A DNA stretch of 64,000 nucleotides. Origin: a bacterium. GTDB lineage: Bacteria; Zhuqueibacterota; Zhuqueibacteria; Residuimicrobiales; Krinioviventaceae. Below the pieces are notes generated by a model. It was not told the DNA's origin. It was given only the letters and a program-made list of their open reading frames with translations, and ran no database searches. Position 1 is the stretch's first letter. Each line of letters starts with the position of its first letter. The DNA lies in the NCBI GenBank assembly GCA_963693055.1, contig OY843751.1:1184001-1248000 (forward strand). Reading direction: 5' to 3'. Positions 21,802 to 64,000 of the stretch are shown in pieces. Position numbers and translations under genes: made by a program.

Positions 21802-22722
21802 ATGAGAAAAATGTTGAGGATTAGTATCTTGATCTTGTTAACAGGTTTGCAATTGTCATTTGCACAGACTCTGGCAGAAAAGCTGGGTTATAAAAATACG
21901 GATAAACTTTTGATCGTAAATTGTGATGATGTGGGTATGTGCCATTCGGCAAATGTGGCGGTTATGGATGCTATGGTGAATGGAATGATCACATCGGGTA
22001 CAATAATGACTCCATGCCCCTGGTTCAACGAGATTGCTGATTTTGCTAGAAGCGGAGCAAAAAGCGATTTGGGAGTACATTTGACCCATACTGCAGAATG
22101 GAAACATTACCGTTGGGGAACCGTTGCTTCTAAAAATCTTGTAAGCGGATTACTGGATCCACAGGGATATATGTGGGAATCGGTTGAAGATGTATATAAA
22201 CATGCCAACGCCGAACAAGCTTATATTGAAGGCAAAGCGCAGATCCAAAAAGCGCTTGATGCCGGTATTGACGTTACGCATATTGACTCACACATGGGTA
22301 CCATGCAGCATGATCCCGAGTATTATCAGGCATATGTGAAATTGGCCAAAGAATACAACTTGCCGTTAAGAATGCCTTCCCAATCTACCACGGAAAAATT
22401 TGGTATGCCCGGTCTTCGCAGCCAGGTTTCCTCAATGGGGCTGATCTTTCCTGATTATTTTGTATATGAAGAATTGCACAACTATGGAGAGGTTAAACCT
22501 TTTTGGACCAATATTTTGAAAAATTTGAAACCCGGTGTTACAGAGATTTATATTCATGCGGCTGTTACAACAGATGAATTAAAAGCCATTACAAACAGTT
22601 GGAAAACACGCAGTAAAGAGTATGAGACCTTTAATCAGGACCCGGATATCAAGAAACTGATTGAGGATGAAGGAATAGTTTTAATTGGTTATCGTCCATT
22701 AAGAGAACTGCAGCGTAAATAA
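21802..22722 (+). CDS. YdjC/ChbG-family deacetylase with signal peptide
   Basis: NCDDVG, GVHLT, HIDSHM, EIYIH; AAGGAG RBS favours ATG 21802 over TTG 21778. Confidence 0.8.
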   Translation: MRKMLRISILILLTGLQLSFAQTLAEKLGYKNTDKLLIVNCDDVGMCHSANVAVMDAMVNGMITSGTIMTPCPWFNEIADFARSGAKSDLGVHLTHTAEWKHYRWGTVASKNLVSGLLDPQGYMWESVEDVYKHANAEQAYIEGKAQIQKALDAGIDVTHIDSHMGTMQHDPEYYQAYVKLAKEYNLPLRMPSQSTTEKFGMPGLRSQVSSMGLIFPDYFVYEELHNYGEVKPFWTNILKNLKPGVTEIYIHAAVTTDELKAITNSWKTRSKEYETFNQDPDIKKLIEDEGIVLIGYRPLRELQRK

Positions 22723-22741
22723 TAATTCAAAGAGGGATAAT

Positions 22742-24253
22742 ATGAAAAAAATATTATTCAGTATTTTGGTTTTATTTTTTACGGTTCAAATACTTTTATC
22801 CAAACCGGTTGAAATTGAAAAATCGGTTTTAAAAGACAAGATTAAAGGCGGTTGGGCGGGACAATTGATTGGCTGCACCTATGGCGGCCCAACCGAATTT
22901 AAATTCAACAGTACCATTATTCCCGATTATCATCCTATTGACTGGAACAGTACTTTGATTGAATGGTGGTTTGATAACCATCCCGGATTGTATGATGATA
23001 TCTATATGGACCTTACGTTTGTTGATGTTTTTGATAAACAGGGTTTGGATGCACCGGCAGAGGCATTTGCAAAAGCGTTTGCGAATGCAGAGTATCCGCT
23101 TTGGCATGCAAACCAGGCAGCCAGATATAACATCCTAAATGGTATAATGCCACCCGAGTCAGGACATTGGCTTAACAATCCCCATGCAGATGATATTGAT
23201 TTTCAAATTGAAGCGGATTTTGCCGGGTTGATGAGTCCCGGTTTGGTGAATGCTGCATCCGGTTATTGTGATCGTATTGGTCATATTATGAACTATGGTG
23301 ATGGCTGGTATGGTGGAGTATATGTAGCTGCCATGTACTCGCTTGCGTTTATATCGGACGATATAGATTTTATTGTCAATGAAGCATTGAAAGCCATTCC
23401 CGCGCAAAGCACATATTATCAATGCATGCAGGATGTGATCTCGCTGCATGATAAATTTCCCAAAGACTGGAAACGTTGCTGGTTCGAGATTGAAAAAAAA
23501 TGGGGAGAAGACATTGGTTGCCCCGATGGTGTTTTCCGTGCATTTAATATTGATGCCAAGATAAATTCTGCATGGATTTTACTAGGGCTTTTGTATGGTG
23601 AAGGCGATTTTGGTAAAACCATTGATATAAGCACGCGTGCGGGAGATGATTCGGATTGTAATCCTGCAAGCTCGGGGGGCATACTGGGTGCTATGATTGG
23701 TTACGAAAAAATCCCCGATGCGTGGAAACAAGGTCTGCATAAAGTAGCTGACCGTAATTTTCAATATACCCGGATATCTCTGAACAAGGCGAATGAGTTG
23801 TCTTTTCAACAGGCATTGCAGGTTATCAGTGATAACGGGGGAACTATAGAAAAGGATAAAGTGCTTATTCCAGAACAGGATGTTAAACCAGTCCCGCTTG
23901 AAATTGGTTTTGAGGGCCATTACCCGATTGAGAGAAAGACAATTGATGCTGAGCTTGATTCTAAAACCGAACTAGAGTTTGAAGGAATTGGATTTACGTT
24001 GCAGGGGAGGATTGTTAAAGAACAGGATGTTGAGATTACATTTCTGGTAGAAATGTATATTGACAACGAACTGGTTGAAACTGCCAAGTTGCCGTCATTG
24101 AGGCATGATCGAAAAAATCCCATGTTTTGGAGATATAAGCTGGAAGAGGGTAAACACCGTATAAAATTCAAGGTATTGAATCCTGCCTCCAACGCAAGAA
24201 TGCATTTGACTGAAATGATTATATATACAGCTACGGATAAGCGGAATCAATAA
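22742..24253 (+). CDS. ADP-ribosylglycohydrolase family protein with signal peptide
   Basis: DKIKGGWAGQLIG, DDIYMD, GDDSDCN; MKK plus hydrophobic N-terminus. Confidence 0.85.
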   Translation: MKKILFSILVLFFTVQILLSKPVEIEKSVLKDKIKGGWAGQLIGCTYGGPTEFKFNSTIIPDYHPIDWNSTLIEWWFDNHPGLYDDIYMDLTFVDVFDKQGLDAPAEAFAKAFANAEYPLWHANQAARYNILNGIMPPESGHWLNNPHADDIDFQIEADFAGLMSPGLVNAASGYCDRIGHIMNYGDGWYGGVYVAAMYSLAFISDDIDFIVNEALKAIPAQSTYYQCMQDVISLHDKFPKDWKRCWFEIEKKWGEDIGCPDGVFRAFNIDAKINSAWILLGLLYGEGDFGKTIDISTRAGDDSDCNPASSGGILGAMIGYEKIPDAWKQGLHKVADRNFQYTRISLNKANELSFQQALQVISDNGGTIEKDKVLIPEQDVKPVPLEIGFEGHYPIERKTIDAELDSKTELEFEGIGFTLQGRIVKEQDVEITFLVEMYIDNELVETAKLPSLRHDRKNPMFWRYKLEEGKHRIKFKVLNPASNARMHLTEMIIYTATDKRNQ

Positions 24254-24274
24254 ATCAACAATTGGGAGGCGGTT

Positions 24275-25207
24275 ATGAGAAAATTTTTACTGATAGTTTT
24301 TATTATAATTCTTTATGTGTCTTTAAGCTCTGCTGCTGATAAACAAAAGATTATATTTGATTGTGATCTGGGTGATGATATTGATGATGCATTTGCCTTG
24401 GCTATGATACTCGCCAGTCCAGAGTTAGATGTTCTGGGTGTTGTTTTGGATTATGGTAACACACCTGAACGCGCCAAAATAGCTTGCCGTATGTTGTACG
24501 AAACTGGCAGAGAAGATATCCCTGTGGTTGTGGGCAGGCAAACGCATGATATTTACTCGCCTCAATTCAACTGGGGAAAAGGATTTGATAAAGTAAAACC
24601 TGTAGACACACCGGCTGATGAATTTATAATCTCTCAATTAAAGAAATACCCCAATGAGGTTGTTTTGATAACAGTGGGTCCGGTTCCCAATATGATGGAT
24701 GTGATTAAAAAGGACAAGGATGCATTAAAACTCTCCAAACATATCTATTCCATGTATGGATCTTTTTATATGGGATACAACAAGGAACCTATACCCAGTG
24801 CGGAATGGAATGTACGTGCCGATGAAGATGCATCTAGACTGTTTTCTGCCTGTGGTGCAGAGATCACTTATGCCGGGCTGGATGTAACCACCTTTGTAAA
24901 GTGGAATGACGAACGTCGTTTAAAACTGTTGATGCGCCAGTCACCCCTTACCAATGCTATATGTGGACTATACAGCTTGTGGCCGCATGAAACGCCAACT
25001 TTGTATGATTGTGTTGCAGTAGGTATGGTGATTTGGCCGGATCTGTTTACAACCCGAAAAGCCTTTGTTAAAGTGATTGATGGCGGATATACGATTATTG
25101 ATGAGAGCAAGACACCCAACTGTGAGGTTGGAGTAAGCATTAAAACTGAAACATTTTTAAACAGATTGATGGATGTATATTTAACTCAGAACCTGATGCG
25201 CGAATAA
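24275..25207 (+). CDS. Nucleoside hydrolase with signal peptide
   Basis: DCDLGDDIDDAFA, AEWNV, LYD; MRK plus hydrophobic N-terminus. Confidence 0.88.
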   Translation: MRKFLLIVFIIILYVSLSSAADKQKIIFDCDLGDDIDDAFALAMILASPELDVLGVVLDYGNTPERAKIACRMLYETGREDIPVVVGRQTHDIYSPQFNWGKGFDKVKPVDTPADEFIISQLKKYPNEVVLITVGPVPNMMDVIKKDKDALKLSKHIYSMYGSFYMGYNKEPIPSAEWNVRADEDASRLFSACGAEITYAGLDVTTFVKWNDERRLKLLMRQSPLTNAICGLYSLWPHETPTLYDCVAVGMVIWPDLFTTRKAFVKVIDGGYTIIDESKTPNCEVGVSIKTETFLNRLMDVYLTQNLMRE

Positions 25208-25226
25208 TTCCATAGGTGAGTACGCT

Positions 25227-26159
25227 TTGGAGAAAACTTTGAGAATAGTAGTTGTTGGCAGTTCCAATACAGATATGATTGTTAATGTACCCAAAATACC
25301 CGTAGCAGGTGAAACGGTATTGGGAGGCACATTTAGTCGTGCGGCCGGCGGCAAAGGCGCAAATCAGGCAGTTGCCGCGGCACGGGCAGGTGGTAATGTA
25401 ACATTCATTGCAAGAGTGGGGAACGATAGCTTTGGAGAAGAAGCAATTACCGGGTTTGCCATAGATCATATCCAGACGCAATATATCTTTCAGGATGAAA
25501 AAGCCCCTTCAGGTATTGCTGAAATTTTTGTTTCTGATAACGGAGAGAACTGTATAGCCGTAGCCCCCGGTGCAAATGCTCTGTTAAGCTCTGAGGATGT
25601 ATTAAAAGCTAAATCTGAAATTGCCTCTGCGGATGTTTTGGTTGCCCAGTTGGAAACCCCTCTTGAAACTGTGGAAACGGCAATTTCTATCGCAAGTCAG
25701 AATCGCACCAAAGTGATCCTGAATCCTGCTCCGGCATGCGAGCTCCCGGACGAGTTATTGTCTCGGGTATCGATTCTGACCCCCAATGAAACCGAAACCG
25801 AATTTTTGACAGGAATTGCTATAACTGACCTTAAAAGTGTAGAAAAGGCGAGTGAAGCTTTGCGGCAAAAGGGTGTACAAATGGTAATTATAACGCTGGG
25901 CAGCAAGGGTGTGTATGTCTCCACAAGCGAATTTGGCGGATTAATACCCGGCTATGAGGTGGATGCTGTGGATACAACCGCTGCCGGTGATGTATTTAAC
26001 GGCGCGCTTGCTGTAGGCATTGCAGGCAGAATGATGTTGAATGAAGCTGTGCAATTTGCCCAGGCTGCGGCAGCGCTTTCTGTTACCCGCATGGGTGCCC
26101 AACCATCCTGTCCTACTCGTAAAGAGATACTGGATTTTATCTCTCAACAACAATATTAA
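25227..26159 (+). CDS. rbsK: Ribokinase
   Basis: GSSNTD, GGKGANQAVA, NPAP, PNETE, DTTAAGD. Confidence 0.93.
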   Translation: MEKTLRIVVVGSSNTDMIVNVPKIPVAGETVLGGTFSRAAGGKGANQAVAAARAGGNVTFIARVGNDSFGEEAITGFAIDHIQTQYIFQDEKAPSGIAEIFVSDNGENCIAVAPGANALLSSEDVLKAKSEIASADVLVAQLETPLETVETAISIASQNRTKVILNPAPACELPDELLSRVSILTPNETETEFLTGIAITDLKSVEKASEALRQKGVQMVIITLGSKGVYVSTSEFGGLIPGYEVDAVDTTAAGDVFNGALAVGIAGRMMLNEAVQFAQAAAALSVTRMGAQPSCPTRKEILDFISQQQY

Positions 26160-50741: not shown

Positions 50742-52088
50742 ATGAGACGAAGAGAATTTATGAAATCATTGGGAGTATTGGCGGCAACAACAATGACCGG
50801 CAGTATTGCCTGCTCGAAACCCAAAAAACTGCCCAATATTGTATTGATCATCTCTGATGATACCGGCTGGCATGATGTAGGATATCACGGATCAAAAATC
50901 AAGACTCCGGTTTTAGACAAGCTGGCAAAAGAAAATGTAGAGCTGGACCGGTTTTATGTGTATCCGGTTTGTTCACCCACGCGTGCTTCATTGTTGGGAG
51001 GAAGACCTCCAAGCAGATGGGGGATTAACGCACCCATAGGTGGCAGAAGTAAACAAGCATTGCCACATGAACAGCCTACGCTGGCGGGACTGCTGCAAAC
51101 AGTAGGCTATAAAACCGCTTTGGCTGGTAAATGGCACCTGGGATTACGACCGGAAGTGGGTCCCCGAAAATACGGATTTGACAGTACCTATGGCTATCTG
51201 CATGGGCAGATCGATCAGTATACGCATCATTATAAAAACGGAGACCGCAGCTGGCACCGCAATGACCAGTTTATTGATGAAGAAGGGCATGCAACCGATC
51301 TAATCACAAACGAAGCCAAGCGAGTGATCACCGAATGGAGCAAGGCCCCGGAGCCGTTTTTTCTACACATTGCATACAGTGTGCCGCACTATCCTTTACA
51401 AGAAGAAGATAGATGGGTTGAGCCTTATAATGATACTATTGAAAACAAGTCACGCAGATTGTTTGCGGCTTCCATGACGCACATGGATGCTCGTATAGGA
51501 GATGTGTTAGAGACCATAAAAGAATCCGGTATTGAGCAGGAAACCCTGGTGATCTATCTCAGTGACAATGGCGGGCAAAAAGACTGGTATCCTAAAACCG
51601 AGTATAACTTGAAGCATGGCCCCAATGATGTGCTGGGTAACAACCTGCCACTTAACGGATGGAAAGGGGATCTGTATGAGGGCGGCATCCGTGTGCCGGC
51701 AATTGTAAGATGGCCTGGTAAACTCGGCAGTGCCAAAGTGGATGAAACTATTATTGTTTATGATATTTTGACAACCGTATCCAGACTGACCGGTGTAACT
51801 TTTCAGCAGGATTGGGTATATGAAGGCATCGATGTTTGGCCAGCACTTGCTGAACAATCCAAGCTCCCGGAAAGGGTGTTCTACTGGCGCTCAAATAAAG
51901 AATATGCAGTGCGCAAAGGGAACTGGAAGCTGGTCCATGTTGGGAAAAAGCTGGAAGAGGGAGAAGAACTGCTGTTTGATGTGATTGCCGATCCCTATGA
52001 ACAATCGAACGTTTTGGACAATCATCCGGATATTGTGGCTGACTTGAAAGCCGAGATGGTAAAGCAAGCAGCAATGGATTTGGAATGA
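50742..52088 (+). CDS. S1 arylsulfatase (possible Tat lipoprotein)
   Basis: MRRREFMK..SIAC; SDD, CSPTR, GKWHLG, SDNG. Confidence 0.92.
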   Translation: MRRREFMKSLGVLAATTMTGSIACSKPKKLPNIVLIISDDTGWHDVGYHGSKIKTPVLDKLAKENVELDRFYVYPVCSPTRASLLGGRPPSRWGINAPIGGRSKQALPHEQPTLAGLLQTVGYKTALAGKWHLGLRPEVGPRKYGFDSTYGYLHGQIDQYTHHYKNGDRSWHRNDQFIDEEGHATDLITNEAKRVITEWSKAPEPFFLHIAYSVPHYPLQEEDRWVEPYNDTIENKSRRLFAASMTHMDARIGDVLETIKESGIEQETLVIYLSDNGGQKDWYPKTEYNLKHGPNDVLGNNLPLNGWKGDLYEGGIRVPAIVRWPGKLGSAKVDETIIVYDILTTVSRLTGVTFQQDWVYEGIDVWPALAEQSKLPERVFYWRSNKEYAVRKGNWKLVHVGKKLEEGEELLFDVIADPYEQSNVLDNHPDIVADLKAEMVKQAAMDLE

Positions 52089-52120
52089 AAAAAAGCCGCA
52101 AATTTTAGCGGCTTTTTTTT
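52088..52120. terminator. Bidirectional intrinsic terminator between convergent genes
   Basis: AAAAAAAGCCGC..GCGGCTTTTTTTT. Confidence 0.9.
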
Positions 52121-52139
52121 ATTATGGTTTTACAAATAT

Positions 52140-53396
52140 CTACTTTATCAGCAAAATCTTTTGCAAAATACTCTCATTCCCACTTTGCCATTTTACAAAA
52201 TAGACACCACTATGCAGGTCCTTGGGAGTATAGTGTAATGTATAGGTGCCGGGTTTGTGGTATTCGGATTTGAGTGTTTCTATATGCTGTCCTATTACAT
52301 TGTAAACATCCGCGTGTACCATGCCAGGTGAATTCACTTTATACGAGAATACCGTAGACGCGTTAAAGGGATTGGGATAGGCATTGCTCAGTTCAAAGGA
52401 TTGTGGGAGTGCTGTTTCATTTTGGGAAACACCAGTAGTACTGTTGAAAACAATATCGGTGCAGACGGGCAGGTGGTCCGATGCAAGATAGAGGGCATCA
52501 GCTATACTGTCCGCAACGGCCTGGTTGGTACCTCCGTTGATATTGTTATTGAAATGTAGCCCGTCATTGCCAAAGGCTTGATATGATTCAGGGATACAGT
52601 ACCAGTCGCCTGGTTCCATTAAAGCTTTAGATACGAGAATAAAATCAAAGCGGTCATCCATGCCACCACCGGCTCCATCATCTACGCTGGAATAACGGGT
52701 TGACTGGGTATGGTAGGGGGTAACCGAGCGACTGTTGTTGTTATGCCAGGCAACCATGAGATCCACAGGATCATAGCATCTGCCATTGTTGTTTTCCTGC
52801 TCACCAATCAATACCTGGTAGGCTTCTTCCTGTGCGGTGTAGAGGTTGAAATCTCCGGCAACAAAAAAGCAAGCGTCCGATGGAAGTTGGTCCAGTTCTG
52901 CGCGCAAAATCTCTGCTTCGTTTTTGCGTAATAGTCGTGACCTGTCATCGTCACTGGCTTTGAGGTGCAAGGAATAGATGCGCAGCTTGGGCGCGTCTGA
53001 ATTGGTTTTCAAGGTAAACATGTATTCGCTGAAATCACGTAATCCGGATTGGATCTGTCTGTTAGACAAGAGAGAGATTCTGGACTTTTTATAAAACATC
53101 ATATTGTCAGTATCATTGCCATCGACATAAGGAGCATTGCTGTAGGTGTCCGGCATATAATAATTTAATATATCATTTTTAAAATAATCTACACCGCTTT
53201 CAGATGTTAGTTCCTGAATGACCAGCACATCCGGCTGCATTTCGTTCAGTACTTTGCGGAATCCGGGGATACGATTCTGTGCATTGACGTCTGGGAATTT
53301 CAATGTATTCCATGTTGCTATACGCAGGGTATCTTGAGCATTGGCAAATCCAAAACAAAATAATATAATCAGTAACAAAATTTTTTTCATATTCAA
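52140..53396 (-). CDS. Secreted endonuclease/exonuclease/phosphatase (EEP) protein with T9SS-type CTD (start probably ATG 53390)
   Basis: Signal peptide; ATWN, QE, HLKA, GDFN, RFDFIL, SDHLPV; CTD YPNPFN..GVYFV..KILLIK. Confidence 0.88.
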   Translation of the reverse strand: MNMKKILLLIILFCFGFANAQDTLRIATWNTLKFPDVNAQNRIPGFRKVLNEMQPDVLVIQELTSESGVDYFKNDILNYYMPDTYSNAPYVDGNDTDNMMFYKKSRISLLSNRQIQSGLRDFSEYMFTLKTNSDAPKLRIYSLHLKASDDDRSRLLRKNEAEILRAELDQLPSDACFFVAGDFNLYTAQEEAYQVLIGEQENNNGRCYDPVDLMVAWHNNNSRSVTPYHTQSTRYSSVDDGAGGGMDDRFDFILVSKALMEPGDWYCIPESYQAFGNDGLHFNNNINGGTNQAVADSIADALYLASDHLPVCTDIVFNSTTGVSQNETALPQSFELSNAYPNPFNASTVFSYKVNSPGMVHADVYNVIGQHIETLKSEYHKPGTYTLHYTPKDLHSGVYFVKWQSGNESILQKILLIK

Positions 53397-53503
53397 CTCC
53401 AGTTTGATTCTTGAATAATATACAAAATTTTAACCAGTAACCCAAATGTACAATGTGTTTCCGATTTTGCTAAAAAAATTGTATCTTGTAAAAAGGAGAT
53501 TCG

Positions 53504-54193
53504 ATGAAAAAGATACTAGTTTTGTTATTGATTGTTTGTTGGATTGGTTTTGGCTGTAATTCAAATAAAAACAGTGATGTATTGACTTTTATGGATGTAG
53601 GGAGTTCATTGCCTTCAACAAATCCTGATGAATGGCTTATGGCTTTTGTAGATGTAGAGACAACCGGATTGATTCCCGGATATCATGAGATGATTGATAT
53701 CGGTATGGTGATAACGGACCTGGAAGGAAACGTAATTGATAGTATGTTTTGTCTTGTTCAACCGGAACATCCTGAGCGGTTATCTGAGGGTGCCTATGCG
53801 GTTAACGCTTTTGATCCGCAGCTCTGGAATTCAAGAGGAGCATTGTCTTCTAAAGCTGCTGTAGACAGTATCATGTCTTTTCATAATCGGGTTGCGGATG
53901 GAAGGTATGTTTTATTGACGGCATTTAACAGCCAGTTTGATACAGCTTTTATGGACCATCTCTTCAGGTCTTGTGATCATTCATGGCGTGAGTTGTTTCA
54001 TTATATGGTACTCGATGTTCCCTCTATGGCATGGGGACTTGGATTCCGGGATATCAGACCCTATACTTTGATGGAAAAATATAATGTGACGGATGAGCCA
54101 CATGTTGCAAAAGATCATACCGGAATAACTGGTGCTATGTTAAATGTTCGAATTTATCAGGCGATTATTTATCATTTAGAGCATATTCATTAA
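53504..54193 (+). CDS. DEDDh (DnaQ-like) 3'-5' exonuclease family protein with lipoprotein signal
   Basis: VDVETTGL, EMIDIG, FNSQFD; MKKILVLLLIVCWIGFGC lipobox; AAGGAG RBS. Confidence 0.8.
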   Translation: MKKILVLLLIVCWIGFGCNSNKNSDVLTFMDVGSSLPSTNPDEWLMAFVDVETTGLIPGYHEMIDIGMVITDLEGNVIDSMFCLVQPEHPERLSEGAYAVNAFDPQLWNSRGALSSKAAVDSIMSFHNRVADGRYVLLTAFNSQFDTAFMDHLFRSCDHSWRELFHYMVLDVPSMAWGLGFRDIRPYTLMEKYNVTDEPHVAKDHTGITGAMLNVRIYQAIIYHLEHIH

Positions 54194-54201
54194 ATTTACT
54201 G

Positions 54202-54356
54202 TTGACTCGTAAGTTAAAAATGTTAAATTGAATTGTTGAAAATGATGTGACCCCGCTGATATGAGATTAAGATTTTCTTAATTGTGGCTTAATATTGCCT
54301 TAAATCCTAGTCCTTAAAATTAAATCTTGAATTATGAAAATTTTGTGTTTTATAAT
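54202..54356 (+). promoter_or_regulatory. Two candidate sigma70 promoters upstream of the 54393 operon
   Basis: TTGACT-N16-TAAATT with TG extension (54202-54229) and TTGAAT-N18-TATAAT (54327-54356). Confidence 0.35.
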
Positions 54357-54392
54357 TTCCTGCAATTGTTCACTTAAACGATATAGAAAAGT

Positions 54393-56654
54393 ATGAAATT
54401 AAGTAATGTTGTTATCCTGAATTTATTACTAGTAGTTACTACCGGGTTATTCTCTCAAGCACCAACGCGCCCCTCATATATCCCAAAAGATCTGAAAAAA
54501 GTAGATGTCGATGATTACTGGCATTATCATGATGTTGGTAACCTGGGTTTATCTATTACCAATTATGGTGTATTGGGTGAAGGATATAATAATCCTGATC
54601 AGCCGTCTTGTATGTATCAGTTGAATACGGATAATATGAGAAAGCAGATTGAGCACATGTCATATGGTGGTCTGTGGATTGGTGGTCGTGGTGGTAACGA
54701 TGGTGCTGTACACGTTTCAACCGCAATCATAGATGGTGTGTTTGAAGCGGGAGAAGAAGGTTTTGAATTTACCAACACCAGCGATACCGGAGATACTATT
54801 CGGGTCCGTTCTTCCATACCAACATCTCCGTCTTTTGATCCGCAGGCTGTTTCACATCAGGACTTTATTTGTGATTTTACAGATGTGAATACAGTAGTGC
54901 CGGGGTCTGATTTTGAGATCCCCAATCACAATCCTCTTGGTTTGATGGTCCATCAGGAATCTTATGCCTGGAATTTTTCTTATACCGACGCATTTATCAT
55001 TTTAAATTATACAATTACCAATATTAACAGTTCTCCCATAACTGATATTTATGCTGGATTTTGGGCTGATGCTGCAATTGGTAATATGAATTATACCAGT
55101 ATTTATGAACCCGGTGGCGGTTGGTCCTGGTATGATAATATGAATGGTTTTGATGATGATTACAAGATGGCGTTTCAGTATGATGATGATGGTGATGATG
55201 GTTTTGCAGAGAGCTATTTTGGTATCCGGTATTTGGGTTCTTCTGGTTCACAGGATGATATCCTGGTTACATATGACCAATGGCAATGGTCTTCACCTTC
55301 AAGTCTTGCGTTCCCGGATTATGTAATGCCCATTGATGATGAAGGGCGATATGAAGTTATGCAGGGCCGTCATATTGGTAAATACCACAATGCGGTAACA
55401 GCAGGCGGGTATCCTACGGATCCATTAGAAGCCGCAAGCTGGATGCTTGTATTATCCGCGGGCACGTTAGGAGATCTTGATCCCGGTGAGTCATTGACAT
55501 TTACATTTGCCATTGTTTGTGGTGAATGGGCAAATAAAGATGAATTAGATAACGCGGAACGTCGCGCTAAATTGCGTTTGAATTCGGATTGGGCGCAGAT
55601 CGCTTATAATGGAGAAGATGTGGATGGCGATGGAAAACTTGATCCCGATGAAGATGTAAATGCCAATGGTGTTCTTGATCCCGAAGAAGATGAATATAGA
55701 GCTGATCTGGATTTGAACGGTAATGGTATTTGGGATCCGGGTGAAGAGATTTTTGGTGATGGCGATGGGATATTGGATATTGAAGAAGATGTTTATGCCA
55801 ACACTCTTAAAGGTATTATTGCCGGTAATGGAATTATTGACAGATTTATTCTTCCCAGTCCGCCTCCATCTCCGAACCTTAAAGTGATTCCCGGTGAAGG
55901 CAAAGTTACATTATATTGGGATAATGCCAGCGAGGAATATGAAGACCCAATAACTCGTGAAAAAGATTTTGAAGGATACAAGATTTATAGCGCTCCCAAA
56001 ACTGCCGGTAGTGAAGAAGACGAAACCATTCTTGCCCAGTTTGATAAAATAAATAATCTGGGTTATGACACCGGTTTTGAATTGATTAAAGTTGATACTG
56101 TAATTGATGGAAAAACATATAATTACAGATTTACCAATTCTAACCTTTTGAATGGTTGGCCTACCGAGTATTGGTACAGTGTTACCGCATTCGATTCAGG
56201 AAATCCTGACAATAATCTTCCCAGTTTAGAGAGCTCAATCCTCGAAAATAAAGTTTATGCAATCCCCGGTTCTAATCCTGCACAATCCAAAATGCGTCAG
56301 ATCACAGTATTTCCCAATCCTTACAAAGCAAATGCAATGTGGGATGGTAGTGGAGATCGTGATCGTATGCTTTGGTTTGCAAATTTACCGGAACGTTGTA
56401 CAATACGTATTTACACAATGGCTGGTGATTTGGTTGATGAAATTGACCATGATGGCGCCACCTATGACGGTGATGATGTTCAGCTCATGTCTGATCGAAT
56501 TGCCGGTAACAATACAGTCCTATCAGGCGGTATGCACGCCTGGGATCTGATCTCAACACATGATCAGGCAATAGCTACCGGTCTCTATATTTACAGTGTT
56601 GAAGATTTAGATACCGGTGACACGCAGGTAAGCAAGTTTGTAATTATAAAATAG
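54393..56654 (+). CDS. Secreted hypothetical protein with acidic Ca-binding-like repeats, FN3-like domain and CTD-like end
   Basis: Signal peptide; PPPSP..VTLYWD..DFEGYKIY..YSVTAFD; VFPNPY..IRIYT..GLYIY..KFVIIK. Confidence 0.75.
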   Translation: MKLSNVVILNLLLVVTTGLFSQAPTRPSYIPKDLKKVDVDDYWHYHDVGNLGLSITNYGVLGEGYNNPDQPSCMYQLNTDNMRKQIEHMSYGGLWIGGRGGNDGAVHVSTAIIDGVFEAGEEGFEFTNTSDTGDTIRVRSSIPTSPSFDPQAVSHQDFICDFTDVNTVVPGSDFEIPNHNPLGLMVHQESYAWNFSYTDAFIILNYTITNINSSPITDIYAGFWADAAIGNMNYTSIYEPGGGWSWYDNMNGFDDDYKMAFQYDDDGDDGFAESYFGIRYLGSSGSQDDILVTYDQWQWSSPSSLAFPDYVMPIDDEGRYEVMQGRHIGKYHNAVTAGGYPTDPLEAASWMLVLSAGTLGDLDPGESLTFTFAIVCGEWANKDELDNAERRAKLRLNSDWAQIAYNGEDVDGDGKLDPDEDVNANGVLDPEEDEYRADLDLNGNGIWDPGEEIFGDGDGILDIEEDVYANTLKGIIAGNGIIDRFILPSPPPSPNLKVIPGEGKVTLYWDNASEEYEDPITREKDFEGYKIYSAPKTAGSEEDETILAQFDKINNLGYDTGFELIKVDTVIDGKTYNYRFTNSNLLNGWPTEYWYSVTAFDSGNPDNNLPSLESSILENKVYAIPGSNPAQSKMRQITVFPNPYKANAMWDGSGDRDRMLWFANLPERCTIRIYTMAGDLVDEIDHDGATYDGDDVQLMSDRIAGNNTVLSGGMHAWDLISTHDQAIATGLYIYSVEDLDTGDTQVSKFVIIK

Positions 56655-56682
56655 TTTAATCATTTAACGAAAGGAGCACTCT

Positions 56683-59310
56683 TTGAAAAAGTTGTTATTA
56701 GTACTCTTGATGGTTGGATGCCTTGCCGGTGTAACTATGGCACAGGTAACCCCAATTCATGACATTCAGTATACAGAAGACGAAAGTGGTGATTCTCCAC
56801 TGGCAGGTCAGACTGTTACTATTTCCGGTATTGTAACCGGTGAACCTGGTGCGTTTGGCAGCAGCTATTATGTTCAGGATGCTGAAGGCCCCTGGAATGG
56901 TATCATGGTTTATGATGGTGGCCGTGAAGTTGCTGAAGGTGATTCTGTAACTTTGACCGCTGAAGTTAGCGAGTATCATAACCTTACTGAACTTTCAAAT
57001 GTAACCGAGTTTACAATTGAAAAAGAAGGTGTATTTGGAATTAATCCCGATACTTTGACTACTGCTGAAGCTTCTACAGAAGCTTATGAAGGCTGTTTGG
57101 TTACTGTAGAAAACCTGACCATTTCTAACAATGATTTGGGATATGGTGAATGGGAAGTAGATGATGGCTCTGGTCCATGTGTTGTTGACAATGTAGCAGA
57201 TTATTATTTTGATCCTACTACAGCTACCGAAGTTGCTTCTATTACCGGTCTTATTGGTTATGATTATGGTGCATACAAAATCAGACCACGTTTGGCTTTT
57301 GATGTTGTTGAAGCTGGTGACTATACCCGTATTCAACGTATTCAGCAAGTACGTCAGAGCGACCTTGAAAAAGCTCCTTACGACAATACATCTGACATCA
57401 GCTATCTCGATGGAGATACATTGAAAATTAAAGGTATTGTTACTATGCCTACCGGTTTGAGTTATGCAGGTGACGGTATCAAATTTATCATCAGTGAACC
57501 CGACGGTGGTCCATGGTCTGCTGTTTTATCATACAATGCAGATTCTACAGCTTATCCACAGTTGTTCGAAGGTGATGAAATTGAAATGTCTGGTTATATT
57601 GGTGAATATTCCACCAGCCCCAGTAACATGACTGAATTCTGGATTACCAGTCCTATTAATATTTTGAGCATTGGTAATGAATTGCCAGAACCCGATTCTA
57701 TTGCTACAGGTGATTTGCGTTGGCCCACCACTGCAGAACAATGGGGCAATGTAATTGTTCAGGTTGGTAATGCAGTTGTAGATAATGTAACCCCGCAGTA
57801 TGAATTGTTCTCTGTAAATGATGGAACAGGTAGTGTATTGGTTGATGATGATTCTGACAGCCTTGCAAATTACGAAGACCCACCATTGGGCGCAATTGCA
57901 GAATATCTCTCTGGTTGGGTTTATCACCATTATGGTAGTTATGCAGACTCTACTGCTTATAAACTTGAACCTCTGTATGTAGGTGATATTGTTTGGGGCG
58001 CTGGTCCTCCTTCTGTAAAAAACACAGTACGTAGTATTGCTGCTCCTACAACACAAGATGATGTAGATGTAACAACTGAAGTTCAAACCAACCTTACTAT
58101 AGCCCAGGCTACCCTGAGTTATAATGTAGATGGTGGTGATTATACTGATGTTGCAATGACTGACAATGGTGATGGTACCTGGACAGGTACAATCCCTGCA
58201 CAAGCTGAAGGTGCTTATGTTAGTTATTACGTAACAGCAACTGATGATGAAGAACAGTCAACAACTGATCCTGCTGAACCTACCAGATTGAATTACAGCT
58301 ATACTTCAACAGATGCTGCATTAACAATTGCTGATTTGCAAAATACTCCATGGGAAATTGCTGACAGTCCTTATAACGGTTACGAAGTAGAGGTTTCCGG
58401 TTTTGTAACTGCTGGTGATGCATTCCTGGGTATCTATGAAGGTTTTGTAATTCAGGATATGACCGGTGCATGGAACGGTGTATATGTTTTCGATCAAACT
58501 GCTGATGATGTTAGCTTGCCGGCACTTAATGTTGGCGACTTTGTAATTGTAAGTGGTACTGTAAGTGATTATAATCCTGATTATCATTACAAATGGGACA
58601 ATAATACTGTAATTCTTGCAGACAGTGTAAAGAAACTGATTTCTAAAACTGCTTCTGAAATGCCAGAACCTGTCGTTGTTTCTACAGGTGATCTTGCTGA
58701 TGACGCTGATACTGCAGAACAATGGGAAGGTGTATTGACACGCGTTGAAGATGTAACTGTTAGCAGTGTTAATTCTTATGATTTTTCTGTAACAGATGGC
58801 TCTGGCGAATGTCGTATCGACGATGATGGTGTTGAAGATACTGTACTTGAAATCAATTCTGATGACGCCTATGTTGTTGTGAATGGAACAGATACACTTC
58901 GCGTTGGTGATGTTATTAGTGGTATTCAAGGTGTATTTACCTTTAGCTTTGGAACCTTTAAAATTGAAGTACGCGACGTAAATGATATGGGTGTAACAAC
59001 CGGTGTTAATGATGACTTTGTAGCTGCTCCATTGGCATACAATTTGGGTCAGAATTATCCCAACCCGTTCAACCCTGAAACCCGTATTTACTTTACTTTG
59101 CCACATACCCAGAATACACAAATTGTAATTTACAATGTTATGGGTCAGCAAGTACGTACATTGGTTGATCAGCAGTACCAAGCTGGACAACATGTTGTGA
59201 ACTGGAATGGCTTGAACAATGCCGGCCTCAAAGTTCCTTCCGGTGTATATTTCTACAGAATCGTTGCCGGTGATTTTGTAGCTACCAAAAAAATGATGAT
59301 GTTGAAATAA
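56683..59310 (+). CDS. Secreted multi-OB-fold (YhcR/ExeM-like) protein with T9SS/FlgD-Ig CTD
   Basis: Three repeated units (I..IQ, V.GIVT, QD..G.W.G..V, GD.V...G.V.EY, E..EG.L, V.DGSG); CTD QNYPNPFNP..SGVYFY..KKMMMLK; TTG start with AAGGAG. Confidence 0.75.
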   Translation: MKKLLLVLLMVGCLAGVTMAQVTPIHDIQYTEDESGDSPLAGQTVTISGIVTGEPGAFGSSYYVQDAEGPWNGIMVYDGGREVAEGDSVTLTAEVSEYHNLTELSNVTEFTIEKEGVFGINPDTLTTAEASTEAYEGCLVTVENLTISNNDLGYGEWEVDDGSGPCVVDNVADYYFDPTTATEVASITGLIGYDYGAYKIRPRLAFDVVEAGDYTRIQRIQQVRQSDLEKAPYDNTSDISYLDGDTLKIKGIVTMPTGLSYAGDGIKFIISEPDGGPWSAVLSYNADSTAYPQLFEGDEIEMSGYIGEYSTSPSNMTEFWITSPINILSIGNELPEPDSIATGDLRWPTTAEQWGNVIVQVGNAVVDNVTPQYELFSVNDGTGSVLVDDDSDSLANYEDPPLGAIAEYLSGWVYHHYGSYADSTAYKLEPLYVGDIVWGAGPPSVKNTVRSIAAPTTQDDVDVTTEVQTNLTIAQATLSYNVDGGDYTDVAMTDNGDGTWTGTIPAQAEGAYVSYYVTATDDEEQSTTDPAEPTRLNYSYTSTDAALTIADLQNTPWEIADSPYNGYEVEVSGFVTAGDAFLGIYEGFVIQDMTGAWNGVYVFDQTADDVSLPALNVGDFVIVSGTVSDYNPDYHYKWDNNTVILADSVKKLISKTASEMPEPVVVSTGDLADDADTAEQWEGVLTRVEDVTVSSVNSYDFSVTDGSGECRIDDDGVEDTVLEINSDDAYVVVNGTDTLRVGDVISGIQGVFTFSFGTFKIEVRDVNDMGVTTGVNDDFVAAPLAYNLGQNYPNPFNPETRIYFTLPHTQNTQIVIYNVMGQQVRTLVDQQYQAGQHVVNWNGLNNAGLKVPSGVYFYRIVAGDFVATKKMMMLK

Positions 59311-59317
59311 TAAATTT

Positions 59318-59344
59318 TGCCTCCCGGATTTTTTCCGGGAGGCA
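59318..59344. other. Strong intra-operon hairpin without U-tract
   Basis: TGCCTCCCGGA-TTTTT-TCCGGGAGGCA, 11-bp perfect stem. Confidence 0.75.
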
Positions 59345-59362
59345 TATAACCTGATAAAGCAA

Positions 59363-60877
59363 ATGAGACCGTTTAGATACTATATATTATTAGCCATAGT
59401 TTTTCTTGTTGCTGTGCAATGCAGTATAAAAGACCCTTTTGGGGATGAAAAAGATTCTCAATTGTTAGAGAATCAACCACCTGAAACCCATCTTTATCTT
59501 TTTGTTGATCAACAACAGATCACACAGTTTGATACGGTGCAGGCAGGTGATACAACTCAAATTATTCCCAAAACCTATACCACTGGAATTGATACCACCC
59601 CTAGTAAGCAAATTGTGCACTGGTGGGGAGATGACCCTGATGGTCAGGTCGTTGGTTATTATTATCAATGGGATTATGAGACCGAACCCACTTTTACTAC
59701 AGCAGAATATGATACGTTTTATGTCCCTATTCAAAGCAGTTATGATGAATTTGAAATCAAAGTGTGGGCTGTTGATAATGAGAATCTGTCTGACCCTTCT
59801 CCGGCAGTACTGATCTATCCCGTATTTAATACTCCGCCTGAAATTGCATTTAGGTTGGGTAGTAATCCGTCGGTCAGTAATAATCCGGAAGTAACTGCAT
59901 ACACATTCCCAACAAGAACATTTGTATGGGAGGCGTTTGATGATGATGGTAGAGAAACCATTACCAATATTTATTACGCCCTGGATGATACAACCACCTG
60001 GATTGCATTACCTGGTGATGAAACACAAATAACCTTGCGTGAACTTGAGCCTGGTGAGCATCGGTTCTTTGTTAAAGCACAGGATATTTCGGGTAAATTC
60101 AGTAATGTCGTTTCTTTCCCTGATCCTGATGATGATAATGTACCGCATCGTTGGGAAGTTCAGCCCGTACAAGGCTCTGTTTTACTTGTTAATGATTTTG
60201 CTCAAGATCAAAACCTCTATGAAGTACAAAATTTTTATACCGATATTTTGGATGAACTTTTAGGCTCTGATGGATATTCAGTTTGGGAGATCGGTACGGA
60301 TAATACACCGGTTGTGAATCCTGAAAATGCGATTCCATATTCTTCCATAGATATTGAAGCAAACTTGTCATATTTTGATAAAGTGATTTGGTTCTCGCAT
60401 TTGGGTAGACCCAGTTTAACAAGTGCCGGTTTGTCTATTACAAAGTTTATGAGTACTGGCGGTGGAATATTGATTACCAATGGTAATGAAGAAACCCCTG
60501 ATACAACATGGACTTTTACCAGTATTGATTCCGTATATCGTTTGAATCCGGGTGGACGTTTGCTACCGGGTATTGATATTCTTGCCTCATTTGGCAGCGA
60601 TAATGATGATGCTTATGATCTGAATCTGGGGCAGCTGGTTGGTAACCGCGTTTCGGCATTGATTCCCGGTTCCGATGCGGATGTAGTGTATTCAATGCAA
60701 CCCGATTCAACAGCATCGGTAACTGTTCCTTATACAGGGTCACCACCTGTTGGTATTCGATATCGGATAGGAAGCGGAGAATCGATCTATTTTTCATTGC
60801 CGTTACATTATTGTTTTGGTAATGATAACATGACAGACGTTCTAAGGTATATACTGTTTGAAGAATTTGAAAATTGA
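59363..60877 (+). CDS. Hypothetical lipoprotein with two Ig/FN3-like repeats
   Basis: Lipobox VAVQC; repeats N.PPE..W...D.DG....YY..V.A.D. Confidence 0.7.
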   Translation: MRPFRYYILLAIVFLVAVQCSIKDPFGDEKDSQLLENQPPETHLYLFVDQQQITQFDTVQAGDTTQIIPKTYTTGIDTTPSKQIVHWWGDDPDGQVVGYYYQWDYETEPTFTTAEYDTFYVPIQSSYDEFEIKVWAVDNENLSDPSPAVLIYPVFNTPPEIAFRLGSNPSVSNNPEVTAYTFPTRTFVWEAFDDDGRETITNIYYALDDTTTWIALPGDETQITLRELEPGEHRFFVKAQDISGKFSNVVSFPDPDDDNVPHRWEVQPVQGSVLLVNDFAQDQNLYEVQNFYTDILDELLGSDGYSVWEIGTDNTPVVNPENAIPYSSIDIEANLSYFDKVIWFSHLGRPSLTSAGLSITKFMSTGGGILITNGNEETPDTTWTFTSIDSVYRLNPGGRLLPGIDILASFGSDNDDAYDLNLGQLVGNRVSALIPGSDADVVYSMQPDSTASVTVPYTGSPPVGIRYRIGSGESIYFSLPLHYCFGNDNMTDVLRYILFEEFEN

Positions 60878-60884
60878 TATAAAT

Positions 60885-63623
60885 ATGAAGAAAATGACAA
60901 AACTGAAACTATTATTCGTTCTCGTTATGCTGCCGGTTCTTGCATTTTCGCAAGCAATTAATACGACTATTTCAGGCCATGTCTATGACAAGGATACAGG
61001 TGATGGTCTGCCCGGTGTAAACATAATCGTTCAGGGTACTTATAAAGGTACTGCTACGGATGCAAATGGTTATTTTGAGATCAAAAGCCTTTCTCCTGGT
61101 GATTATGATATTAAAGCATCAATGATTGGTTACATTGTACAGATCCAAACCGGTATCAAAGTACAATTGAACCGTACAACAACTCTCGACTTTAAACTCG
61201 AACCTACAGTGTTGGCCTTTGGTCAAACCGTAGAAGTCGTTGGTGAAAAACCATTGTTTGATGCTGAATTGACAGCTTCTGAACAGCGCATGTCTGAAGA
61301 AGAAATCAAACAAAAGGTTGTTGAAGATGTAAATGATCTGGTAGCTGACCAGGTAGGTGTTGTAGTGCAAGACAACAAGATCTTTATTCGCGGTGGTCGT
61401 GCTGATGAAAGTATGTATGTGATCGACGGCCAGTCCATCAAAGATCCTTTGTCTGGTTATTCCAACACACTCTATATTAATGCTTCAGCCATCAAAGAGC
61501 TCAAGGTGATTACCGGTGGTTTTGACGCGGAATATGGTCAGGCCATGTCAGGCATTATTGACGTAGAGACCAGAGAAGGTGGAGATGAGTACGAGGGTAA
61601 CTTTGTGATCAAGACTGACAATCTTTTGTCAAACTATGTCAACAGTCACAATACAGATATCATCCAGTTTAATATTGGTGGTCCTGACCCTATTACTTCA
61701 AATTTGCTCCCCAATATCGGATTGGATCTTCCGGGTGAACTGGCATTCTTTTTCAGTGGTTATACTCATTTGTCAGATACCTACTTGCCTCATGCGAACA
61801 AACTCTATCCGTCAAAATCAGCATTTAATGATTTTGCACCCCGTGAGGAAAATGACTGGCATATACTTGGCAAATTGTCATGGACACTTAAACCCGGTCA
61901 AAAATTGACGTATTCCTATGATCGTTCATTAAACATTAACCAGGGATACTTTTTACCTCGTGTAAGTGGTGAACGTGGTTATCCTTATGATTTTCAGGAA
62001 AATCTGGATCATTATAACACATTTACCAAAGAGGGGTTCCTGAGTACTTTAAAGTGGACCCATACCTTGAATGCTACTACTTTTTATAATTTGAGCATTT
62101 CAAGATTTTATACCAGTTTACACTCTGCGGTTCAAAATAAACACTGGTCCGACTATGTTCAGTATCTTGACCTTGAACCTATCTATTATTATCCCACCAG
62201 TGATGGTAGTATTGAAACCCGCTTTGGAGATGGTTTCTGGGATTATGGTGATTCAGAAAACTGGTATGATTACTTTAGTGATACCTGGACTTTGAAGGGT
62301 GATTTTACCTATAACCCCAATGAACGCCATTCTATGAAAATGGGATTAGAATCCCGATATACGGATATGCAGGTGATTGATATCAATGCACCCTGGTATG
62401 GTGAATCTGGACTGGGACGTAACCATGATTTTTTCAGAGTATTTCCCAATGATGGCTCTTTATACATTCAGGATAGAATTACCTACAGTGGTATGATTGT
62501 GAATCTGGGATTGCGTTACGATTACTGGTTCCCGGGAAAATATGTTGACGATGCCATTCAAGATCCAGAAACCGTGATCATTACAGATGAAGCCCGTGAA
62601 AAATATCTTGAAGATACATTTGAGGTTTTTGGGCTGCACGGAAAAGGCCACCTGAGTCCACGGTTGGGTATTTCTCACCCAGTTACAGATAATGATGTGC
62701 TTTATATGCATTATGGCCATTTTTCTCAAAAGCCAAAAGGTCAATATGTATATGCCAAGTTGAAATCTACTTCCGAGGCAACATACCAATTGTTCGGGAA
62801 TCCTAATCTTGATCCTACAACTACGGTTGCGTACGAGTTGGGTTTAAAACACCGTTTTAACGCAAACCAGACAATTGAGATCAAGGCATATTATAAAGAT
62901 ATGTTTGATTATCCCACGGCTGTGAGTGTTAAAAAATACAGTCCGCGTTATGGAAACATTAGTTATCTCATGTATGTGAATATGGATTATGCAAGATCCC
63001 GTGGTATTGAGATGCGTTTTCGTCGTAGGTATTCAAAATACCTGAGTGGCAATATTGATTTTTCATATGCTGTTGCTACCGGTAAAAGCTCTTCACCCAA
63101 CACCAATCTGTTGGTTGCCGCGGGTAAAGTGGAAGAAAAACCACTTGGCGAAACCAGCCTGTCTTGGGACAAGCCCTACAGGGTTTCAACTGACATTTAT
63201 TTTGATGTTCCTAAAGGAGATGGCTGGAATTTATTTGGATTTAAAATGCCCGAAGATTGGGGTGTTAGCGTACGCTGGGAGCTTGAATCCGGTAAGCGAT
63301 ATACCAAGCTTGTGGATGTAGACAATAATATATATGAAAGCGACGAGTACAACAGCCTGTCTAAAATGAAAATGCGAACAGATTTAAAATTTTACAAGAA
63401 TTTTACAATGTTCAACACGCTGTTGTCCTTTTTTGTAGAAGCTGAAAATGTTTTCAATAATAAAATACCGAGAATCATCAACCCGGTAACCGGCCAGCCT
63501 TATGAGCCGGGGGATGTAATTCCCGTAACCTGGTATGATGAAGCACAGGATCTACCACCGTCAAACCCTGCCCGCTATGAATGGCCACGACGGGTTATGA
63601 CCGGTCTTGAATTTCAGTTTTAA
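60885..63623 (+). CDS. TonB-dependent receptor with N-terminal carboxypeptidase-regulatory-like domain
   Basis: ISG.V.D..TG..LPGVN, plug IRGGR..E..YVIDG, GGFDAEYG, SPRLG, terminal Phe; ATG 60885 preferred over TTG 60858. Confidence 0.92.
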   Translation: MKKMTKLKLLFVLVMLPVLAFSQAINTTISGHVYDKDTGDGLPGVNIIVQGTYKGTATDANGYFEIKSLSPGDYDIKASMIGYIVQIQTGIKVQLNRTTTLDFKLEPTVLAFGQTVEVVGEKPLFDAELTASEQRMSEEEIKQKVVEDVNDLVADQVGVVVQDNKIFIRGGRADESMYVIDGQSIKDPLSGYSNTLYINASAIKELKVITGGFDAEYGQAMSGIIDVETREGGDEYEGNFVIKTDNLLSNYVNSHNTDIIQFNIGGPDPITSNLLPNIGLDLPGELAFFFSGYTHLSDTYLPHANKLYPSKSAFNDFAPREENDWHILGKLSWTLKPGQKLTYSYDRSLNINQGYFLPRVSGERGYPYDFQENLDHYNTFTKEGFLSTLKWTHTLNATTFYNLSISRFYTSLHSAVQNKHWSDYVQYLDLEPIYYYPTSDGSIETRFGDGFWDYGDSENWYDYFSDTWTLKGDFTYNPNERHSMKMGLESRYTDMQVIDINAPWYGESGLGRNHDFFRVFPNDGSLYIQDRITYSGMIVNLGLRYDYWFPGKYVDDAIQDPETVIITDEAREKYLEDTFEVFGLHGKGHLSPRLGISHPVTDNDVLYMHYGHFSQKPKGQYVYAKLKSTSEATYQLFGNPNLDPTTTVAYELGLKHRFNANQTIEIKAYYKDMFDYPTAVSVKKYSPRYGNISYLMYVNMDYARSRGIEMRFRRRYSKYLSGNIDFSYAVATGKSSSPNTNLLVAAGKVEEKPLGETSLSWDKPYRVSTDIYFDVPKGDGWNLFGFKMPEDWGVSVRWELESGKRYTKLVDVDNNIYESDEYNSLSKMKMRTDLKFYKNFTMFNTLLSFFVEAENVFNNKIPRIINPVTGQPYEPGDVIPVTWYDEAQDLPPSNPARYEWPRRVMTGLEFQF

Positions 63624-63644
63624 CCATGATTAATGATATTGGGT

Positions 63645-64000
63645 ATGAATGTGAAACAAATTAAATATATTACTTATGCACTAGTATTTTTATCTGCATC
63701 TTTTGTGTATTCACAAGGTTTGCTGCCAAAATTGGGTGAACAGCGTGCAGGAACAGCATCAATGACATTTTTAAAAATTGGAGTGGGTGCACGAGCTGTA
63801 TCCATGAGTGGTGCATACGTTGCAATGGCCGATGACGGTTCTGCAATGTACTGGAACCCCGCTGGAATTGTTCAAATTGGTAAAAATGAACTTGTAATGT
63901 CACATATGGATTGGCTTGCGGATATTAAATATGAATTTCTTGGGTACGCGCACCAGTTGAATTCAAATATTGGTATTGGTATGTATGTGGGCTATCTGCA
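63645..64000 (+). CDS. PorV/PorQ (UPF0164)-like outer-membrane protein, truncated by window end
   Basis: Not in ORF track; translated by hand: MNVKQIKY..FLKIGVGARAVSMSGAYVAMADDGSAMYWNPAG..SHMDWLADI; open to 64000 (alternative ATG 63633). Confidence 0.85.
   Translation, partial: MNVKQIKYITYALVFLSASFVYSQGLLPKLGEQRAGTASMTFLKIGVGARAVSMSGAYVAMADDGSAMYWNPAGIVQIGKNELVMSHMDWLADIKYEFLGYAHQLNSNIGIGMYVGYL

Follow-up and report, generated by a model that had tools for sequence, protein, structure and literature searches.

The window analysed here is a stretch of 64,000 nucleotides (G000:C1:1184001-1248000) from a 6.5 Mb bacterial genome held on one contig, and its right-hand end carries a six-gene cassette built around a TonB-dependent receptor. 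A sequence-only reading had proposed that exported nucleases, a capture protein and a receptor work together here on nucleic acids, in the manner of a polysaccharide utilization locus (PUL). The open reading frames (ORFs) that it named are present where it placed them, and their products have hydrophobic N-termini or lipoboxes (read by eye), in keeping with the export that it proposed; its gene list stands except that the first gene of the core (54393-56654) had been left out.

All core genes lie on the forward strand. The first (54393..56654, 753 aa) encodes a protein with a beta-supersandwich, acidic repeats, an FN3 domain and a PorZ-like C-terminal domain, and the second (56683..59310, 875 aa) an OB-fold protein, here called 56683, with DUF5689, a match to the ExeM N-terminus and a type A C-terminal domain (CTD) for type IX secretion (T9SS). 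Just 3' of the latter gene, an 11-pair hairpin without a U tail (59318..59344, forward strand; -23.8 kcal/mol, z -5.85, with 0 of 200 shuffles equally good) may set the transcript levels of the first two core genes. The third gene (59363..60877, 504 aa) encodes a lipoprotein of no known family, the fourth (60858..63623, 921 aa) the TonB-dependent receptor, with a plug domain and an N-terminal extension, and the fifth (63633..64646 in window numbering, ending past the window; 337 aa) a barrel of the PorV/PorQ family, as the earlier reading had recognized for both membrane proteins. It had also seen that the locus runs off the window: the barrel gene finishes there and a single NHL-repeat lipoprotein gene follows (64646-65878 in window numbering, outside the window; 410 aa). 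Next come what appear from their sequences to be haem-synthesis genes, and the genes inspected past position 64000 include no glycan or peptide enzymes.

Two further genes precede the core. A DnaQ/DEDD-fold exported lipoprotein (53504..54193, forward strand, 229 aa; Pfam RNase_T, lipobox), an accessory component, is separated from the first core gene by 199 bp containing promoter-like sites, whose excess over shuffled sequence is weak (11 against 8.0). A DNase I-like EEP enzyme with a T9SS type A CTD (52140..53396; Pfam Exo_endo_phos, TIGR04183 and sequence motifs) was correctly described beforehand and is encoded on the reverse strand, opposite to the cassette. Between this gene and a sulfatase block lies a hairpin (52084..52123) with an A-run before and a T-run after it, likely a two-way terminator that forms the left boundary of the locus. 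Family scans of the locus proteins found no catalytic family of carbohydrate-active enzymes (CAZymes) or peptidases, consistent with the earlier observation, and gave only a weak CBM56 match below the cut-off; within the cassette there is no SusC or SusD family member and no regulator gene. Neither the fucan/sulfatase block (26-52 kb) nor the haem genes downstream are counted as parts of the cassette, the former being beside it only here and in a same-genus genome, and the adjacency of the latter being kept only in that same-genus genome.

Comparison with other genomes shows that the conserved unit is the six-gene cassette, consisting of the 753-aa protein, OB protein, lipoprotein, TonB-dependent receptor, PorV/PorQ-like barrel and NHL lipoprotein. 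Its gene order is common to three little-known bacterial phyla. Genome contigs were scanned with the OB protein (survey 1, 80 of 122 related loci kept) and metagenomes with a receptor alignment (survey 2, 80 of 270 loci kept). All six genes are present in 55 loci of survey 1 and 45 of survey 2, and the order is kept in every one (55/55 and 45/45). The receptor is missing from 12 survey 1 loci, in each of which the contig ends less than 2 kb from the OB match, and the 753-aa gene is absent from two loci despite room for it. In survey 2 the OB gene is found in 59 of 80 loci, and the remaining 21 have less than 2.2 kb of upstream DNA; it is thus found at every locus with enough upstream DNA. A rearranged order, with the lipoprotein first, occurs in two copies fetched later (G065 and G142). 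The receptor clade is present in 88 of 167 genomes of the window's phylum (53%) and in 101 of 151 Marinisomatota genomes (67%), nearly always as a single copy.

The OB protein 56683 is predicted from its domains to capture nucleic acids. It contains double-OB units at about 56743-57315, 57319-58002 and 58321-58980, an immunoglobulin-like (Ig) domain at 58003-58317 (residues 421-525 in the model) and the type A CTD at 59056-59298. Homology between the third unit and the first (hhalign E 3.8e-44) brings the count to three double-OB units, or about six OB folds. The sequence-only reading had counted three OB-fold units of the kind accessory to ExeM-type nucleases; the kinship was right, but each unit is double and an Ig domain is added. 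The protein matches the ExeM N-terminal model (E 6e-21) and, over its N-terminal part only, NF033681 (74.9 against 300); its DUF5689 score is marginal (30.2 against a cut-off of 28.6), and a genome-wide search with the same family missed it. Its predicted structure has a mean predicted local distance difference test (pLDDT) score of 88.7 and gives OB-fold matches at four places besides the Ig domain; the model shows OB and Ig domains only, with no catalytic domain. Foldseek matches include CTC1, p204 HIN, POT1 and RPA, at low whole-chain TM-scores. By sequence, the OB unit is nearest to the N-termini of ExeM/NucH, SpnA and 5'-nucleotidase proteins, and among 17 matches in a plasmid collection, 10 of them annotated, seven of the annotated ones are N-termini of these same proteins. 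Beside other cassettes, closely similar units occur in fusion with metallophosphoesterase and EEP domains, while in the window genome the OB profiles match 56683 alone. The accessible parts of two papers report that the same OB module is needed for the DNase activity of Xds (PMC6746945) and that ExeM needs Ca (PMC6085458).

The receptor belongs to a TonB-dependent receptor clade of its own and is not a SusC protein (TIGR04056 score 61.9 against a cut-off of 368.25). A tree of 61 receptors groups 49 cassette receptors in a single clade (FastTree support 1.0), separate from 12 paralogues encoded in the window genome; in a deeper branch the OB protein has two double-OB units in place of three, often with a lamin-tail domain. 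The barrel matches Pfam PorV over the whole protein (35.7 against 27). The 753-aa protein is predicted to be a surface partner held by this barrel: its tail weakly matches the PorZ C-terminus (E 1.9e-6, 26.6 against 260). Its predicted structure (pLDDT 71.5) has an N-terminal sandwich that aligns with GH116 (Z 17.2, root-mean-square deviation 3.8, 269 residues aligned) and resembles the non-catalytic N-terminal beta-supersandwich of GH116/GH94 enzymes. A complex prediction for the receptor barrel and this N-terminal domain scored 0.00, which is not evidence either way. Neither this protein nor the 504-aa lipoprotein has a solved relative by sequence. The latter, single-copy in the window genome, has no Pfam, NCBIfam or PDB match and one Atlas lead, FN3+DUF4960, of only 0.89; it is a candidate lid or second binding protein.

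Eleven paralogues of the 753-aa protein are encoded in the genome (G000:C1 near 190288, 352865, 579588, 2441256, 2455008, 2504436, 2546789, 2832458, 3253173, 3625582 and 4815474), each adjoining a TonB-dependent receptor and a PorV-like gene, so that the triad is a scaffold of general use; among the triads, only the window cassette has the OB protein and the two lipoproteins. The genome also encodes a SprA translocon and two PorU sortases, while GldM/PorM motor proteins gave no match in it, nor in any of the control genomes. Several paralogous triads carry starch, pectin or GH2 enzymes with LacI-type regulators, a SusD-free PUL design. The same triad occurs in a cultured organism on the Rhodothermus marinus plasmid pRMAR01 (L261, 9542-18312), where genes for a peptidoglycan-recognition protein and a serine hydrolase come after it; the partner protein of this triad matches the 753-aa family at 99.8% probability, and the plasmid is a possible test bed for the triad.

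The EEP enzyme is likely a nuclease or phosphodiesterase, to judge from residues N30, E62, H144, GDFN181, DRFD248 and SDH306, which are kept across 13 homologues and which we take to be the DNase I-type motifs. In the window's phylum the family occurs in 25 of 167 genomes, 21 of which have the receptor (hand count); in 12 of these 21 the two genes lie within 15 kb on the same contig, and in nine on other contigs. In Marinisomatota it occurs in 40 of 151 genomes, 30 with the receptor, and is within 15 kb of it in 12, at 22 kb in one and on other contigs in 17. This linkage is far above the chance expectation of about 1% for a 30-kb span, it is found in both deep branches of the receptor tree, and it takes four arrangements: upstream co-oriented, upstream divergent (as here), downstream co-oriented and downstream convergent. 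The expectation that receptor homologues elsewhere would be flanked by nucleases and OB proteins is therefore borne out for the conserved OB gene and for the linkage of both nuclease families, but the nucleases fall outside the core. Relatives of the cassette EEP and OB proteins also bear lamin-tail domains.

The DEDD-fold lipoprotein had been read as a DEDDh exonuclease, and its RNase_T domain and lipobox agree with this, but its active site is non-canonical. D50, E52, D146 and H205, corresponding to the Exo I D-x-E, the Exo II Asp and the general-base His, are invariant in 120 of 120 homologues; of the 1002 relatives that the family has at E<=1e-20, each of the best 120 has Gly in place of the fourth catalytic Asp. 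Invariant D151, D171, E198 or N214 might stand in for this fourth carboxylate. The family is rarer than the EEP family, being present in 3 of 167 genomes of the window's phylum and 13 of 151 Marinisomatota genomes. Its gene lies beside cassette genes in G000 and G001, beside an OB paralogue and another EEP gene in G030 (where a second copy sits among nitrogen genes), and less than 4 kb from the receptor in G065 and G142. In G061, G094 and G148 it is 16-18 kb from the receptor, heading a purine-synthesis run in one lineage, which is weak support for linkage, and 8 of the 13 Marinisomatota genes are on other contigs than the receptor. The PADLOC matches are to generic exonuclease models; a role in defence was considered and set aside, since 107 of the 111 homologues whose N-terminus is long enough have a hydrophobic one.

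Other enzymes acting on nucleic acids or phosphate take the place next to the cassette elsewhere. Using a set of markers of the analyst's choice (nuclease, phosphoesterase, nucleoside salvage and phosphate uptake) and loci with at least 1.5 kb of flank, a marker lies within 5 kb in 31 of 68 loci of survey 1 and 26 of 56 of survey 2. Neighbours of this sort at individual cassettes include other EEP families (G030, G142, G155, G157, L164 and L221), nucleotide pyrophosphatase (NPP; L144, L145 and L172), 5'-nucleotidase (L105 and L116), cdd-udk-tdk-nupC (L125), pstSCAB with a phosphate porin (L034 and L063) and a Na/Pi transporter (L179). L164 has an OB-fused metallophosphoesterase and an EEP+DUF5689 protein, G142 a run of EEP, ADP-ribosylglycohydrolase, DEDD and nucleoside hydrolase genes, and G157 metallophosphoesterase, EEP and ADP-ribosylglycohydrolase genes. 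As a control, the neighbourhoods of the 12 paralogous receptors were examined through 59 of their 87 proteins, omitting barrels and part of the housekeeping genes; these contain no EEP, DEDD or OB protein, and the neighbours found are amylases, GH2, GH28, GH43, pectate lyase and M6/S8 peptidases. At L244 (G155:C14) a co-oriented run before the cassette encodes three EEP domains, a 5'-nucleotidase fusion, lamin-tail/OB proteins and a helix-hairpin-helix protein.

A cluster at 22-26 kb of the window had been suggested as a downstream step of the same pathway. One of its genes (22742..24253, forward strand, 503 aa), encoding an exported ADP-ribosylglycohydrolase-like protein, lies 28 kb from the cassette here, while orthologues 57-60% identical immediately precede the cassette, in the same orientation, in G142 and G157; five Marinisomatota genomes combine the receptor with a close orthologue, and these are two of them. 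This gives the suggestion modest support, and the protein is possibly in the same pathway as the cassette, but the nucleoside hydrolase adjacent to the G142 cassette is only 28% identical to that of the window. In the whole run (21778-26159), the YdjC-like, ADP-ribosylglycohydrolase-like and nucleoside hydrolase proteins have export signals, and the ribokinase encoded after them is cytoplasmic; the ribokinase had been described as exported, wrongly, since the product of the 25227 gene has no signal peptide. Elsewhere in the genome (G000:C1:5777889-5782661), an ssb-cdd-udk-tdk-nupC-like run is the same as that directly 3' of the L125 cassette (matched by eye).

From these gene contents, we consider that the six genes probably encode a TonB-powered outer-membrane importer of environmental DNA or RNA fragments, in which the OB protein would catch the polymer and the EEP enzyme cut it. 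Type IX secretion would bring the EEP and OB proteins, which have CTDs, to the surface, and the PorV/PorQ-like barrel of the cassette would anchor the 753-aa protein through its PorZ-like tail, in the way that PorQ anchors PorZ. Binding of nucleic acid by the OB array would probably rely on Ca/Mg bridges and base stacking, which are proposed because the array is acidic. Interchangeable accessory enzymes would then cut the polymer and release phosphate, the receptor would import the oligonucleotides, and the 5'-nucleotidase and the ssb-cdd-udk-tdk-nupC cluster, both present elsewhere in the genome, could finish salvage. The unrelated accessory genes found at different cassettes point to the same nucleic-acid/phosphate reading.

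Several observations weigh against an importer of this kind. OB folds bind sugars and proteins too, and YgiW is among the fold matches of 56683. This protein is the second most acidic of the 208 CTD proteins in the genome, with a net charge of -0.12 per residue (-0.03 to -0.14 in its homologues), and such acidity argues against simple electrostatic binding of nucleic acid. The EEP enzyme is an accessory outside the conserved core, its family being absent from 67 of 88 and 71 of 101 receptor genomes; its nearest solved chain is nocturnin (E 7e-6), and EEP enzymes include phosphatases. In the DEDD protein, the fourth catalytic Asp (Exo III) is replaced by Gly210 in 120 of 120 homologues aligned to PDB 7t2s (H-x4-G for H-x4-D), so that exonuclease activity is not assured. 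No marker lies within 5 kb in 37 of 68 and 30 of 56 of the loci with sufficient flank. In one branch of Marinisomatota the upstream position is taken by a C69 dipeptidase-like gene (6 and 9 loci), an M6 peptidase occurs at one locus, three loci have GH97, GH31 and GH57 genes at a distance of a few more genes, and one paralogous triad has GDPD and metallophosphoesterase genes nearby. In addition, relatives among the surveyed genomes and loci are not independent, many loci being close kin, and one set of 40 regions was hand-picked, partly for known EEP linkage. The earlier proposal of a PUL-like nucleic-acid system thus gains from the linkage in other lineages and from the downstream genes, and loses in that the nucleases are accessory and the DEDD protein lacks a catalytic Asp.

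Among the alternatives, the most probable, though still unlikely in our view, is that the cassette collects small nucleotides together with other phosphodiesters, such as NAD, ADP-ribose, cyclic nucleotides and glycerophosphodiesters, and not polymers, with the EEP enzyme as a phosphatase. The ADP-ribosylglycohydrolase-like, nucleoside hydrolase, NPP, GDPD, 5'-nucleotidase and Pst genes found as neighbours would suit such a diet, but they are also expected as later steps of nucleic-acid breakdown. Similarly, the nearness of the EEP enzyme to nocturnin favours small substrates and the acidic OB units fit a metal-bridged small ligand, but the presence of four to eight OB folds in a row points to a polymer, and the DNase activity of Xds requires the same OB module, according to the accessible part of PMC6746945.

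A quite unlikely alternative is that the cassette provides the outer-membrane step of natural transformation, like the Riemerella pair of a DUF5689 protein and a receptor, with nutrition being secondary. The core contains no nuclease, is nearly always single-copy and is kept in small genomes, all as expected of a transformation system, but the adjacent surface nucleases, phosphatases and phosphate transporters fit digestion. ComEC is encoded in the window genome, but a ComEC match is also found in 10 of 14 control genomes. The G155 cluster includes a helix-hairpin-helix protein, and such a protein is essential in Riemerella (PMC8459023, in the text available), but the G155 protein has no BLAST match in the window genome. 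The ssb gene 3' of some cassettes would also suit DNA uptake, and among the neighbours scanned neither comEC nor dprA lies beside any cassette. Finally, a glycan or peptide importer or structural surface complex, with the nucleases as chance neighbours, is very unlikely: the 753-aa sandwich fold is known from glycoside hydrolases but is a non-catalytic domain common to all triads; the sulfated-fucan cluster abuts the locus but lies behind a terminator and is beside the cassette elsewhere only in a same-genus genome; and the C69-like peptidase upstream in one branch and the ability of OB folds to bind sugars are set against the lack of any glycoside hydrolase as an immediate co-oriented neighbour in annotated loci and an EEP linkage well beyond the chance level.

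The proposed importer of nucleic-acid fragments most resembles the ddbABCDEF locus by which Bacteroides thetaiotaomicron utilises DNA (Sharan et al. 2025, PMC12478041). According to the available part of that paper, ddb is likewise PUL-like, with a TonB-dependent receptor, a DUF5689 OB-fold protein (DdbD family) and secreted nucleases but no SusD, and its nuclease content differs between subtypes. In contrast, the DUF5689 protein of the cassette has three double-OB units and is a predicted T9SS cargo; here and in the surveyed copies its gene is set off from that of the receptor by the 504-aa lipoprotein gene; and the cassette adds a PorV/PorQ-like barrel, the 753-aa partner and an NHL lipoprotein, and keeps nucleases outside the core. 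Because the DUF5689 protein is not the adjacent partner and three to four core genes have no ddb counterpart, the cassette is not assigned to ddb. The cassette instead appears to be a Ddb-like DNA-utilisation locus built from different parts, and apparently undescribed: no description was found in the literature searched, which did not extend to most subscription papers and supplements, including the ddb datasets.

Other known systems share parts of the design. RA0C_RS04915/RS04920 of Riemerella anatipestifer pairs a receptor-type barrel with a DUF5689 protein and is linked to DNA uptake, but consists of two genes needed for transformation, and the available text describes no PorV-like barrel or CTD partner (PMC8459023). 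The ExeM and Xds nucleases have the same OB module; in the accessible descriptions (PMC6085458, PMC6746945) OB and EEP are in one chain and no dedicated importer is involved, whereas here they are encoded by two divergent genes. PorZ sits at the surface on a small barrel of its own, PorQ, and has an atypical CTD that is not cleaved; the 753-aa protein, whose tail weakly resembles that of PorZ, is predicted to be held likewise, but here the pair is encoded with a TonB receptor and has 12 copies in the genome. SusC/SusD PULs (as summarised in the available part of PMC12478041) share the capture-cut-import logic, and the paralogous triads carry CAZymes and LacI-type regulators, while the cassette has no SusC, SusD, CAZyme or regulator gene. 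A Marinisomatota class is reported in DNA-amended cultures, with no locus described in the accessible text (PMC8630151). The available part of the Lipocone preprint (10.1101/2025.01.14.632903), also considered, proved unrelated.

The recyclers of extracellular DNA in seawater and sediments, and the means they use, are poorly known, and dedicated DNA-utilisation loci were first described in 2025, in gut Bacteroidales only. We tentatively suggest, as a possibility, that KSB1, Calditrichota and Marinisomatota (SAR406) use a SusD-free importer, composed of a TonB receptor and a partner clipped to a PorQ-like barrel, and that its nucleic-acid version is present in two thirds of Marinisomatota. The triad would then be a general alternative to SusC/SusD in these phyla, and the cassette would be a specific, highly conserved marker for extracellular-DNA use in 53% (88/167) and 67% (101/151) of the genomes. 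If true, abundant uncultured groups would be dedicated consumers of dissolved and sediment DNA and RNA, employing a split ExeM-type system, in which OB array and nuclease belong to different surface proteins, and an exported family of DEDD-fold proteins whose active site is rewired.

The remainder of the window and genome holds other clusters. The sulfated fucan-type cluster (26283-52088) encodes GH95, GH29 and GH43 enzymes, five sulfatases, a GDSL esterase, sugar catabolism enzymes and a LacI regulator, and contains no TonB receptor. A chemosensory cluster (6968-21669) encodes CheA, CheW, methyl-accepting chemotaxis proteins with CZB domains, CheR, CheB and PAS kinases. Near G000:C1 2553544-2562627, repeats in spurious ORFs are followed by CRISPR-Cas-like genes (by eye).

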